This document shows, in pieces, positions 10,470 through 51,625 of a stretch of DNA of 60,590 bases. The notes beneath the pieces were generated by a model. The model worked only from the letters and a program-made list of their open reading frames with translations, had not been told where the DNA came from and did not search any database. The stretch's first letter is position 1. Each line of letters begins with the position of its first letter. Source of the DNA: Eledone cirrhosa (Eukaryota); the NCBI GenBank assembly GCA_964016885.1, contig CAXHJY010000934.1:1-60590 (forward strand), written 5' to 3'. The position numbers and the translations under genes are program-made.

Positions 10470-11436
10470 CCCGAAAGCGTAACAATAGACAAACTATCTG
10501 GTTCTCTTCTCCCTTCCCACTCAACGTTAAAACTAATGTAGGAAAAATTTGTTTAGCCCTCTTAGATAGACACTTTCCCATAGGTCACAAATACCGCTCC
10601 ATCTTTAACAGACACAAAGTAAAACTAGGGTACTCCTGCGCTAAGAATATGAAGGCTCACATCACCAACAGCCCTAAGAGCAACACCCACCAGAGTCCTC
10701 TTGCTGAAAGCCTGAAGCTTGTCCATATCAACAGCAATGCAACATACCCGCAGTAGTTTACGAAGCTGTGGTCACTTCCAACCGACCAAATCAACCACAG
10801 GAGGTCAAATCCTATGTGGGTATGGCGGAGGACCGATTTAAGGAACACTTCCTGAACCATCAGTCGACCTTTAGGTACCCGGACAAACGATGATCGACGA
10901 AACTCGCGAGCCATATATGGTCCCTCAAGGACTCAAGTATAGACTACTCCATTCAATGGAAAGCCATCACTAAGTCCAAGCCATACGCAAGGGGCAATCC
11001 GTCTTGTGGAATATGTATTGATGAACGGATAAATATTCTAAAGAGATTACGCAATAGCGATTGCCTAAACTCAAGAAATGAAATATTCACCCGTTGTCCA
11101 CATGTCTGGAAACACCTCTTACATAACTACAAAGCTCCGGATTGAATAACATCATCCTAATTTTTTTATCAACTAGAACCTTTCGGACTTTCGCTGTTAT
11201 CTCCCTTACACCTCTCGCCCGCAGTTTTGTATTGCCTGGGTGAAGTGACCGTTTCTGCGCATGCGCGTTCATACGGTTGTCCTTCCTGTTCCGTATAACC
11301 ATGACCATTACGATCCGAGGATCCGCTAAGGTGAAACAATTGTTCTCGGTATGGTGAACTAACTGTTGTGCTACCATTTCTATCTAACTCGTCCCATGGA
11401 CTGAGTGCTCTACCACTACGGATATTACCTTCCAGT
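10470..11436 (+). mobile_element. Decayed Penelope-like (Neptune-type) 3' fragment: linker, GIY-YIG, degenerate hammerhead, tail
   Basis: IWFSSPFPLNVKTNVGK...HFPIGHKYRSIFNRHKVKLGYS, VVYEA...YVG, CGIC...LNSRNEIFTRCPH across frames; ccgagga-tccgctaaggt-gaaac-aatt-gtt near 11315-11343; gagtgct at 11403. Confidence 0.82.
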
Positions 11437-11502
11437 GTTCTCTCTCTCTCTCTCTCTCTCTCTCTCTCTCTATATATATATATATATATATATATATATA
11501 TA

Positions 11503-11700
11503 ATCCACCTGGCTGTGATAGGGCTGATAACGTTGTTAGAACTCAATATATATAAAAGGCAAACACAAAGACACAAAACAATTAATGTTATTAGGCTCAT
11601 GCTTAGATGAAAGAGGGAAAAAAGAGTTCAACGTTTCGGACTTTAGCCCTTCGCTAGAAGATACAGTGGAAAAATAGAAAAAGAATTAGAAAAAAAAAAT
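11503..11700 (-). mobile_element. Putative PLE 3' end with degenerate hammerhead and tail
   Basis: Minus strand ctagcga-agggctaaagtcc-gaaacgtt (11630-11657); tail motif gagttct (11538-11544); abuts a TA tract. Confidence 0.45.
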
Positions 11701-12129
11701 CGGTAAAATGACAGGTAACTTAAGTGAACTATCTCATTTTGAAATGAAAGAAAGTCAGTTACAGTCGTCAAGGCAATACGTAAATAAGCCCTTAGAGACT
11801 TCTACGCTCAACTTGTTAGATTATTTTTCAGAGTCATAAACATGCGTTGAAGCAGTTAACTTTATGCTAATATATGTTCAAAATCCATTATTCGTTCAAC
11901 GGTCCTTAGAATATGCGCTTATTTATTTACAAGTGATATTGCCTGCATCTCCGGGAGTGTATTGCATAACAGACACAAATCTATGGCTAATAAATGTCTT
12001 ATATGTCAGTTATTCTGCCAGCCATTCACCGATGACGTTTATAATATTGTTACCAGTACATAACTTACTGCTTGGATAAATAAGGTCAGGCCACGTTGAC
12101 TGCCTTAGCTGACAGTGGAAGTGGGTTAG

Positions 12130-12441
12130 TATACGTGTGTGTGTGTGCACACACACACACACACACACACACACACACACACAGAGTTGCTCATACGAGT
12201 GCACATACACACACACACAACACACGCATTTACAAACACACACATATACGTGCGCGCGCGCGCGCACACACACACACACACACACACACACACACACACA
12301 CACACACACACACACACACACACACACACACACACACACACACACACAGAGTTGCTCATACGAGTGCACATACACACACACACACACAACACACGCATTT
12401 ACAAACACACACATATTCACGCACGCACGCGCACGCACACA
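12130..12441. repeat. (CA)n microsatellite with a duplicated ~65-bp unit
   Basis: gagttgctcatacgagtgcacatac...aacacacgcatttacaaac occurs twice (12184 and 12349). Confidence 0.9.
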
Positions 12442-49559: not shown

Positions 49560-50110
49560 TATTTATTAAAATAACAGATTAAAGTTTAAGCAAAGAATCG
49601 CTGCTTTCACCCTTAACGGGATCTTCTGAAACTAACAAAGTCAATCTGTAAACGCAGAACTGGATATTTCAAAAAACGTTGCAACCGGAGGAAGACAGGA
49701 AGACGATACTTTGGTTCGTGGAAACGTTCGCTGGCGACCACCTAAGAGAACATTAGTCTACGACCTCTTTTATACCATAAACGTGGTTCTGTCTTTGCGC
49801 GTAAATGTTTTTCACCGCTCCTATTAATGACGTATTATTCGTTTTTTCCCGTTCTTCGCCAGCGAACGTCTCCACGAACCAAAGTATCGTCTTCCTGTCT
49901 TCCTCCGGTTGCAACGTTTTTTGAAATATCCAGTTCTGCGTTTACAGATTGACTTTGTTAGTTTCAGAAGATCCCGTTAAGGGTGAAAGCAGCGATTCTT
50001 TGCTTAAACTTTAATCTGCTATTTTAATAAATATTTGCTCTACGGTTCTTATATATTTGATATATATTTATCCTCATCGAGCCCTCTTTGGATTTTAGTC
50101 TTCAAATTTA
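49560..50110 (+). mobile_element. Small PLE-derived inverted-repeat insertion with variant hammerhead (CAGAAGA core) and tail
   Basis: IR ~49560-49736 / 49856-50033; cagatt..agttt-CAGAAGA-tccc gttaa gggt-GAAA-gca..tgcT-T-aaact..aatctg (49945-50018). Confidence 0.7.
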
Positions 50111-50358
50111 TTATTATTACTATATATATATATATATATATATATATATATATATATACATATATATATACACACATATATATATATATATATATATATA
50201 TATATATATATATATATATATATATATATATATATGTATGTATGTATTCGTGAGTGAATAATAATATAATATTATTATTAATATTCGGTTCGTTTGCATG
50301 CTAACGGGCTCATAACACAATGTGTGTTTTTTCGATGACTGACGTCATTCTTTTGTTC

Positions 50359-51175
50359 CAGCAGTAGCAAAGAGAAAATAGTCGACAATTTTCGACAAAC
50401 CCTATTTTCTTTAAAAAAAAAAAAAAGATGTTAAAAGGTATTTAAATGTTGCATAAAATAATTTTAAAAATTATTTAGAATATCTAAATACAGAAAGTAA
50501 TAAAGATAATAATAGGAAAATGTATTCTACCAAAATTATAAAACATGTACAGTACTTCAGTTTATACAATGTTTTTAACTTTTTTCTTTGGAGCATATAT
50601 GAAGAGTTTGTGGGCGCTTCCTACTATGGAACATCCTACATACAACTGACCATATGAGAAACAGCCTCTTCTAGGTGAAGCCGTACAACCAGCAGGGTTT
50701 GACCTTGGTACTTGTTAATGGTCATTGTGTAACTGACTCTCACTAGGAATTGCAATCGAAACGAAAAGGGTCATCTGTTGGTATTAGCGGCATTCTAGGT
50801 ATAAATATGATGCATCCCTTACCACATCCACTGACGATTTCAGCTTCGATAATGTAATTCAATCATAACCATATGTGTCCCATTGCACACGCTTGGCTGA
50901 TCTAGGTTTCTGAGAAGCCTGATGACTGTGCCCTTATCCAATTCAAGGTTGTGTGGCGGCCTACTGGGCGGTTCCATACCTTTGAGAAATCCAACGGGAT
51001 AATGAACAATATCGTCCTCGTCGACAACTTCCGGGATCATTTGTGAGAGATTTCTGTTGATGGCATTGATGGTGATATTTGGGGTGGAGGGAGGATTGCA
51101 CTTTTATACAGCCATTCTTCGTTGGAATGGTGGATTTCGAAATTGGCGAACACTTGATTAATTAAGCTATCAACG
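50359..51175 (-). mobile_element. Decayed Helitron fragment: PIF1 helicase C-terminal half and 3' region
   Basis: YPVGFLKGMEPPSRPPHNLELDKGTVIRLLRNLD..VCNGT; QFLVRVSYTMTINKYQGQT; VGSAHKLFIYAP..VKNIV. Confidence 0.82.
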
Positions 51176-51269
51176 TATATGCATACGTGTGTGTGCGTGT
51201 GCGCGAGTGTATAAATATATATATATATATATATATATATATATATATATAAATTATATATAAAAGTAT

Positions 51270-51625
51270 ATATGAAGTATTTCCGTCGGAAAGGTACAGG
51301 AAAAAAGAGTGCTCTATGTAGGCTACAGAGCTTATTAGTTATATAATAAACAACATAAGATAATTATTTCATTTACCAGTGGTTTCTTGACGGCAGATAT
51401 TTATATCTGTCTTCAGTCGTAAGAATGAATAAATAACATGGTGTTTTTATTAAATATGGATTTATTAAATCCATTTATTAAATCCATTTATTAAATCCAT
51501 TTATTAAATCCATTTATTAAATCATATTATTCTGACGACTGAAGACAGATATAAATATCTGCCTTCAAGAAACCACTGGTAAATGAAATAATTATCTTAT
51601 GTTGCTTATTATATAACTAAAGATA
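51270..51625 (-). mobile_element. Small PLE-derived inverted-repeat insertion with hammerhead, tail and a 13-bp tandem in the spacer
   Basis: IR ~51335-51425 / 51529-51620; about five copies of atttattaaatcc at 51459-51523; tail motif at 51307-51314. Confidence 0.72.
51524..51590 (+). ncRNA. Type I hammerhead ribozyme motif
   Basis: tatt-CTGACGA(51532)-c-tgaagacagatat aa atatctgccttca-a-GAAA(51569)-cc act gg-TA-aatga; the other arm has CTTACGA but a better stem I (ttcatt/aatgaa). Confidence 0.68.

Follow-up and report, generated by a model that had tools for sequence, protein, structure and literature searches.

The stretch of DNA analyzed here, 60,590 nt of contig CAXHJY010000934.1 from Eledone cirrhosa (the window), is 36% GC and dense in (TA)n runs and retroelement debris, including insertions of Penelope-like elements (PLEs). 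We found that the ends of PLEs of the Hydra clade, in the window and elsewhere, are accompanied by a small bulged hairpin, which occurs in two copies (SL1 and SL2, for stem-loops 1 and 2) between the hammerhead motif of the pseudo-long terminal repeat (pLTR) and the start of the open reading frame (ORF), and that insertions end just 5' of one copy or the other. The structure of the hairpin, its duplication, its conservation and the positions of the ends relative to it are all observed directly; judging from its pairing and distribution in sequence, the hairpin is a clade-wide structured cis-element of Hydra-clade PLEs, a group of mobile elements in marine animals.

A bulged hairpin behind PLE ends in the window

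An earlier note on this sequence had listed a short motif at ten places in the one-sided tails of PLE-type ends. All ten strings were found, once each, at the coordinate and on the strand given for them, and wherever an inverted partner arm exists the motif does lie in the one-sided tail. Its proposed set distance from the TA junction held as well, the motif start being 37-85 nt from the next (TA)4 or (CT)4 run, as did a positional bias over background: nine of the 16 YGAGTDCY matches on the two strands lie in the zone from 25 to 90 nt upstream of a (TA)5+ run, which makes up 5.4% of the non-microsatellite sequence (binomial p 3e-8, a value inflated because the pattern was drawn from these same sites). 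The leading TAYR of the proposed consensus turned out to be variable stem sequence rather than part of a fixed motif, and the inventory of ten was incomplete: an eleventh site at 50037-50085 (+), the complementary RCTC strand, the second copy and the link between hairpin and insertion end had all been overlooked.

The conserved unit extends beyond the motif: GAGY has a complementary RCTC 16-77 nt upstream of it, and the whole can be written as RCTC-(inner stem, variable loop)-T(T/C/A)-GAGY-RCT. In each SL, RCTC and GAGY form a 4-bp stem with T(T/C/A) bulged out on the 3' side, the inner stem covaries, the loop is free and the RCT that follows on the 3' side is unpaired. The hairpin is intact (GAGY/RCTC enclosing three or more additional pairs, with 1-2 nt bulged on the 3' side) at eight of the ten listed sites, these eight were the sole matches to the descriptor on both window strands, and a relaxed scan of the window added a single site, 50037-50085. 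None of 82 motif matches in PLE coding sequence has a hairpin. In the window, the signal is carried by the position of the hairpin, its count alone being modest. All sites have (TA)n flanks, and a hammerhead-type GAAA lies 55-90 nt upstream at 7 of the 11 and 162 nt upstream at 48941; the hammerhead scan found none upstream of 20763, 30685 and 36393.

The ends bearing the motif had been described as otherwise unrelated. Both sites tied to an ORF (11403 and 48941), however, belong to the Hydra clade, in which the motif is general, and the window ends are probably related to one another, since two lie in PLEs shown by their ORFs to be of this clade and most of the others lie behind Hydra-type hammerheads. 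For the remaining, ORF-less ends, the hairpin and the hammerhead type, rather than protein, point to the Hydra clade.

The hairpin pair in loci selected by protein

Loci were also chosen by protein alone: an alignment of the Hydra-type endonuclease (EN) region gave 481 confirmed metagenome stretches, from which we took the 80 best; these form 64 clusters at <80% nucleotide identity. Sixteen of these have no detected hammerhead after the ORF and another 16 end <100 nt past it, leaving 48 informative loci. The SL1 motif lies 60-85 nt after the hammerhead GAAA in 30 of the 48, against a background of 0.034 motifs per 95 nt of ORF; 18 of the 30 have at least 3 inner pairs and 12 have fewer. Eight further loci end in a TA run before the expected SL1 position, and ten were unclassified, among them two near-variants with a full hairpin (L002 and L023), one locus that stops 1 nt before the hairpin (L052) and one that stops right after the hammerhead (L046).

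Among loci with continuing sequence or a 5' end, SL2 follows SL1 at 58-83 nt in 14 cluster-level pairs, and an ATG lies 19-25 nt past SL2 in 11 of these. The order of the leader is hammerhead, ~50-65 nt, a TATA-like stretch, SL1, ~40 nt, a second TATA-like stretch, SL2, ~20-25 nt and ATG. The canonical hairpin is also present in three of the six new Hydra consensus sequences of Craig et al. 2021 (PMC8557442), which were inspected by eye: one copy stands at the end of Hydra-2_Amil and of Hydra-2_Ajap, and two stand at the beginning of Hydra-1_Ajap. Hydra-1_Crog has variant hairpin forms, Hydra-1_Amil ends before the expected position and in Hydra-1_Obim no copy was seen.

Scanning 185,579 prokaryote genomes for the motif first yielded 27 matches, four of which have the SL1 5' strand, which had not been part of the query; a Hydra-type ORF accompanies three of these four and none of the 23 matches without the strand. 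In viral contigs, neither Hydra-type loci nor the motif pair were found. As to Naiad and Chlamys ends, 11 nine-mer variants sought in the supplement of Craig et al. gave six matches outside the Hydra file, internal-looking and without the hairpin (line breaks may hide matches), and these two groups therefore probably lack this form of it.

Compensatory changes preserve the hairpin

Pairing was assessed in copies picked by sequence alone, with one taken from each cluster for each copy type; of these 52 copies, 2 were dropped for want of a CTC anchor. Inner pair 1 is Watson-Crick in 47 of 50 copies, against 25.2 in shuffles (pairing was not required), pair 2 in 31 of 50 (14.7 in shuffles) and pair 3 in 20 of 29 (8.7); for pairs 4 and 5 the Watson-Crick excess was not significant in these same copies. 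The bulge opens with T in all rows and ACT follows the stem in most. The first inner pair of SL1 is TA in 19 copies, CG in 10, TG in one and TT in one, and on the EN tree its CG state takes 4 changes, at least 3 of them forced by well-supported branches. At the outer pair, 49 of 50 metagenome rows have G-C, 7 window sites have A-U and both L074 copies have U-A. Given 11 equal-length sequences, RNAalifold arrived at the identical fold unaided, with 12 double changes and none of 500 shuffles as high.

A covariance model built on the 11 equal-length hairpins recovered the metagenome copies, with 99 matches at E up to 10. The same model was weak on the ACTC/GAGT variants of the window: besides its training site it found 37646 at E 1e-3, and it placed 37136, 36384 and 33151 at E 1.2-9.6, among chance matches. 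The Rfam covariance models gave one weak unrelated match in six loci and none on the hairpins in 48400-51650; over the whole window they gave 314 matches, of which the 150 listed were microsatellite-driven and included nothing relevant. An outer helix beyond RCT was considered and rejected, its gain being -0.39 kcal/mol against -0.49 +/- 0.11 kcal/mol with swapped flanks, and a MAFFT alignment of 49 hairpins, which split the 5' strand, was left unused.

Of the functions first guessed for the motif, that of a conserved cis-signal whose position with respect to the element end is fixed is borne out, and RT (reverse transcriptase) or EN recognition would be its most likely role; a core promoter or a 3'-end-formation signal is unlikely because the conserved feature is base pairing across a variable loop, found twice inside the leader. 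A core-promoter or translation element, composed of TATA and an initiator-like (Inr-like) GCACT and close to the ends only secondarily, would fit the TATA-like stretch 5-8 nt upstream, the position of SL2 ~20-25 nt before the ATG and the TATA and Inr-like words reported in rotifer pLTRs (PMC3846280). Compensatory pairing across a variable loop is, however, not expected of a DNA promoter, and there are two copies, each tracked by ends within a few nt, so that we consider this explanation very unlikely.

Insertions end just 5' of SL1 or SL2

Ends were examined in window arms, metagenome loci and one read-mapped family, and were measured by comparing the 3' copy with the leader of the same locus or cluster, with contig ends, read-through copies and the diverged L057 excluded. 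Eleven of 13 measurable insertion 3' ends lie 0-7 nt 5' of RCTC (p 3e-10 at a null of 16/170), four of them at SL1 (L009, L014, L073, L074) and seven at SL2 (L011, L012, L032, L039, L069, L071, L080).

In the window, seven arm pairs were aligned and the extension is one-sided in all of them. A short tail-less arm stops 5 nt before the SL1 at 37654-37680 (+; motif at 37674; ACTC/GAGT, 4 inner pairs, TC bulge), and another tail-less inverted arm stops 5 nt before that at 30653-30691 (+; motif at 30685; ACTC/GAGT, TT bulge, extended inner stem). The left arm belonging to the SL1 at 48864-48947 (+; motif at 48941; ACTC/GAGT, TT bulge, long loop insertion) stops 4 nt short of it, a short arm stops 3 nt before the SL1 at 51308-51331 (-; motif at 51314; GCTC/GAGC, 4 inner pairs, TA bulge; hammerhead core at 51383-51416, 68 nt upstream), and the partner arm at 49567 stops ~2 nt before the overlooked SL1 at 50037-50085 (+; motif at 50079; GCTC/GAGC, TC bulge, CCT after). 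With the arm at 37145, which stops between -5 and +1 of its hairpin, six of six arms fit. A degenerate SL1 at 33154-33174 (-), whose 5' strand is GCTGC and which fails the descriptor, has a tail starting 1 nt before it and a hammerhead GAAA 58 nt upstream of GAGT. The window ends lie behind a TATA-like stretch, and among 49 copies a TA dinucleotide stands at -8 in 41% and at -6 in 47%, against 8.8% in the background.

The read-mapped family (37083-37335), for which four runs from at most three samples were used, is very abundant and has an SL1 at 37139-37161 (-), with a hammerhead-type core 80 nt upstream (37226-37267, -). In run X21, 5,341 of 34,753 reads turn into (TA)n at 37161, the main junction, via TA microhomology, and a second end lies near 37096. 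Read variants at >=5% fall in the loop, at the variable bulge base and in the flanks, and none fall in paired columns.

Since insertions end either just 5' of SL1, without a tail, or just 5' of SL2, with one, the tail is the interval from SL1 to SL2, with SL1 always inside it, which is why the motif had been met in tails alone. An optional 'tail' of 30-40 bp has been described for EN-containing PLEs (PMC11167929; PMC3846280), a range outside which both the SL1-SL2 spacing of 58-83 nt and the window tails of ~65-135 nt fall. Like the PLE tail described there, including that of Poseidon_Ac, the Hydra-clade tail is a one-sided extension of an inverted pair, corresponds to the start of the next unit and goes with two alternative ends; it differs in being 58-83 nt or more in length and non-coding, and in that each end lies just 5' of a conserved bulged hairpin copy.

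A possible role in starting reverse transcription

We think it rather likely, from the arrangement of these sequences, that the hairpins are RNA sites that position two internal starts of reverse transcription; what we infer here is which molecule folds, which domain binds it and that each target strand uses one hairpin. The hairpins would act in read-through RNA running from the pLTR into the next leader, where the RT-EN protein would bind an SL and thereby bring the UA-rich sequence immediately to the 5' side of that SL into the active site. A nicked (TA)n target would then anneal to this stretch by 2-8 nt of microhomology and prime cDNA, and the bound hairpin would be left uncopied because priming takes place just 5' of it. 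SL1 would serve one target strand and SL2 the other, giving an inverted pair with a tail on one arm. For a Poseidon-clade protein in vitro, cDNA was reported to start at two internal RNA sites that bound the tail, RNA 3' of these sites being required (Frangieh et al. 2024, PMC11167929), and the SLs may be the sequence determinant of two such starts.

The same hairpins could instead form in single-stranded DNA (ssDNA), where the GIY-YIG EN would recognise an SL in a sense-strand intermediate or in an opened pLTR and cleave within the TA-rich sequence a few nt 5' of the hairpin; the two ends would then be resolution or trimming sites and not priming sites. The geometry is that of SsnA, a bacterial GIY-YIG nuclease that binds an ssDNA hairpin and cleaves a few nt upstream of it, depending most on the cytosine that directly follows the palindrome (Chenal et al. 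2025, PMC11893778); here, a conserved C at RCT position 2 follows the stem and the ends lie just upstream. Craig et al. ascribed the tail to EN-mediated resolution (PMC8557442), the D. virilis EN, as cited by Frangieh et al. (PMC11167929), needed the tail for cleavage of plasmid DNA, the TATA stretch is also a preferred EN target, and GAGYRCTY is near-palindromic, an antisense-strand match occurring in 16 of 47 intervals. Loops that vary freely up to ~60 nt (48864-48947) and compensatory changes oppose a plain double-stranded DNA site and leave an ssDNA hairpin unaffected. Against an ssDNA role, the Poseidon tail ends match RT starts that were measured directly (PMC11167929), and SsnA, of a separate bacterial family, is likened by geometry alone: the Ssn nucleases and their NTS hairpins share with the Hydra-clade ends a GIY-YIG domain, a key cytosine just 3' and an event a few nt 5', but they are bacterial, stand-alone nucleases without an RT and with a different hairpin, and would serve as an analogy only (PMC11893778). 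On balance we regard an ssDNA role, the main alternative, as possible though unlikely.

The SLs might also cause the element RNA to be cut a few nt upstream of them, whether by the element protein, a host nuclease or the hammerhead, leaving two template 3' ends for end-initiated priming. Such cleavage predicts the identical two end positions, and a hammerhead lies 60-85 nt upstream; the ends are, however, off the hammerhead cleavage site, which is within ~10 nt of its GAAA, hammerhead mutants of Poseidon left insertion unaltered, with initiation being internal (PMC11167929), and the 20-30 nt hairpin has no Rfam ribozyme match. We therefore hold RNA cleavage to be improbable.

If the hairpins do position priming, they may go further and make the leader a compact two-site RNA module comparable to telomerase RNA, an idea that we offer tentatively and think doubtful, in which a dimeric PLE protein would sit on SL1 and SL2 at once and prime both strands ~65 nt apart. 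At each SL, a UAUA alignment region would be brought to one of the two strands of the cut (TA)n target, and a single step would thus give inverted arms and a one-sided tail, and realignment of the UAUA could add TA repeats at the junction.

Several points weigh against hairpin-positioned priming. That SL1 and SL2 serve opposite target strands is drawn from arm geometry alone; many SL2 copies have one inner pair alone; and the inner cells hold 7 G-U against 3 A-C among 110, genomic data leaving RNA and sense-strand ssDNA inseparable. Two ends do not fit, that of L033, 27 nt before SL2, and that of L046, just after the hammerhead, and six of the 48 informative loci (L005, L013, L042, L050, L055, L070) are without the motif and unexplained. 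In the 37083-37335 family, SL2 was not seen in the 30-letter loose ends, and both window copies extend ~13 nt past the modal second end. Finally, the window descriptor was written after viewing the window sites, and 100 local shuffles yield a mean of 1.9 and a maximum of 7 descriptor matches, against the 8 observed.

These last two points, a post hoc pattern and shuffles with up to 7 matches, are also what speaks for chance, or for neutral common descent of a few related families within this AT-rich window, together with the membership of 20757 and 37139 in one family and the possibility that 11538 is itself a chance match. The loci selected by protein only, their 64 clusters, the repeated compensatory changes and the presence of the hairpin in published coral and sea-cucumber consensus sequences and in the blind motif-first scan all speak against this explanation, which we consider extremely improbable.

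Elements of the window and further observations

The ORF-bearing insertion that carries the 48941 site is a near-perfect inverted Hydra-clade insertion of 10.5 kb (38453-48995), in which the inverted duplication spans ~38453-48860 and the extension to 48995, the tail (48860-48995), is confined to the right arm. It holds two 5'-truncated PLE ORF arms, 42110-43987 (-) and 43788-45203 (+), and a hammerhead-like core near 48651-48780. Some 3.4 kb of microsatellites and degenerate repeats separate the ORF from the hammerhead, far more than in other Hydra loci, and this long 3' region is possibly captured host sequence.

The ORF at 42110-43987 has YRDD and then YIG, that is, an RT followed by a C-terminal GIY-YIG EN, and is 35-39% identical to the full-length homologue P0008 over RT and EN; a Pfam search assigned no family to it. 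Its linker carries CxCX5C (CNCRNKANC), and CxxC (CRLCSQE) and CxH (CNH) motifs stand beside conserved E and N residues. The CxCX5C linker and the CxxC and CxH motifs are given as defining features of the Hydra clade (PMC8557442), and by these motifs the ORF can be assigned to a Hydra-clade PLE. Its element further shares with the Hydra-clade elements of Craig et al. the C-terminal GIY-YIG EN, the pLTR hammerhead and (TA)n targets (PMC8557442). RW(K/R) is present in 4 of 6 homologues checked and DK(T/S) in 6 of 6, the window ORF being 5'-truncated for RWK/DKT. In the GIY-YIG core, where the clade is expected to lack a CCHH motif, most homologues have no cysteine, and the two in the window ORF are unconserved in the alignment. 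At 42850-43100, in the gap between RT and linker of this minus-strand ORF, there is an Asn/Thr/Lys-rich insertion of ~100 residues that most homologues lack.

The other ORF-tied SL1, 11387-11409 (+; ACTC/GAGT, 4 inner pairs, 1-nt bulge), lies 66 nt past the GAAA of a degenerate hammerhead; upstream is a Hydra-clade PLE fragment (10469-11133, +) from the C-terminal part of the protein, decayed by a frameshift and a stop (tblastn E 2e-35). Two more SL1 copies are found at 20757-20779 (-; ACTC/GAGT, TC bulge), of one family with 37139-37161, and at 36387-36414 (-; ACTC/GAGT, 4 inner pairs, TC bulge). The listed site at 11538-11550 (-) has the 3' half alone, fails the descriptor and shows no matching 5' strand at the expected distance, and may reflect another clade, a deletion or chance. 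The hammerhead in 11538-11657 (-) has a GAAACGTT stem III, unlike the Hydra-type stems tabulated by Craig et al. (PMC8557442), and this end may mark a different PLE clade, in whose tail just the 3' half of the motif is held. Motif matches at 33494 (SINE-like), 4395/4402, 22328 and 20376 were rejected, being without a hairpin or without RCT.

Elsewhere in the window, 21249-24998 is an uninterrupted frame of 1,249 residues with an endonuclease, an RT and a C-terminal C2H2 finger, apparently an intact LINE (long interspersed nuclear element), and 26177-29757 is a broken non-LTR element with an RT and a C-terminal Cys/His region, at which a 107-nt direct duplication is found (26161-26267 and 27437-27541). 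A near-perfect palindrome of 580 nt with TA-rich flanks occupies 35332-35913; no hairpin motif was found in it. The stretch 30741-30819 is a 92% copy of the tail stretch 50033-50083 with a damaged hairpin and is a possible captured PLE tail; the sequence directly before it resembles a Helitron-type 5' end.

Among the other loci, a subclade (L032, L045, L051 and L055) appears, by eye, to have an extra ACTCA/TGAGT hairpin 25-45 nt after the hammerhead and upstream of SL1, which is hinted at in Hydra-1_Amil too. L005 has a (TA)n run at ~440-480, within the leader just 5' of SL2 and at the inferred priming site, which could come from slippage, repeat addition or insertion of an element into its own kind of site. 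Three prokaryote genome records, L087, L105 and L106, carry Hydra-type PLE DNA of animal origin, which most likely got into symbiont bins as contamination from the host.

Discussion

PLE RTs are the closest relatives of TERT, and another RT, that of hepadnaviruses, is bound by a bulged stem-loop, epsilon, which sets an internal initiation point, protein priming being templated from the bulge; at the Hydra-clade hairpins, in contrast, the DNA target would prime outside the hairpin. Telomerase RNA resembles the arrangement described here: next to a helix that is bound by protein and has conserved bases at its foot, it has a short alignment region that is complementary to a primer of simple repeats (PMC4993307). 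Its boundary helix, however, lies 5' of the template and stops synthesis, whereas the SLs lie 3' of the start and would set the beginning (PMC4993307); the SLs are 3' of the copied region, and not 5' as a template boundary would be. We claim no homology.

The hairpin pair is apparently undescribed. The passages on tails in the published accounts mention an AC-rich stem-loop in one element and no motif shared across families (PMC11167929; PMC3846280), the text of Craig et al. on the Hydra clade mentions neither a hairpin pair nor a tie to insertion ends (PMC8557442), and the available portions of PMC4209133, PMC7229834, PMC13282606, PMC5737381, PMC4993307 and bioRxiv 10.64898/2026.07.22.740005 hold no description of the hairpin. 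No description of the pair was found in the literature on PLE ends, where an earlier mention is possible in figures, Repbase reports or subscription papers.

How PLEs choose the start of reverse transcription and why a one-sided tail accompanies most insertions has been open since the elements were described, and the 2024 in vitro work placed the starts for one element without giving a determinant. A short hairpin that many families conserve just behind both ends shows which bases to mutate and allows a model of RT priming to be told from one of EN resolution, making the origin of PLE tails directly testable. Should the two-site module be real, a stretch of ~100 nt would be enough to mobilise any RNA into (TA)n sites. 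With PLE RTs standing near telomerase, an RNA signal beside an alignment stretch that matches a repeat would bear on the origin of RNA recognition by RTs, and in invertebrate genomes the motif pair marks the boundaries and the clade of short repeat fragments that have no ORF.

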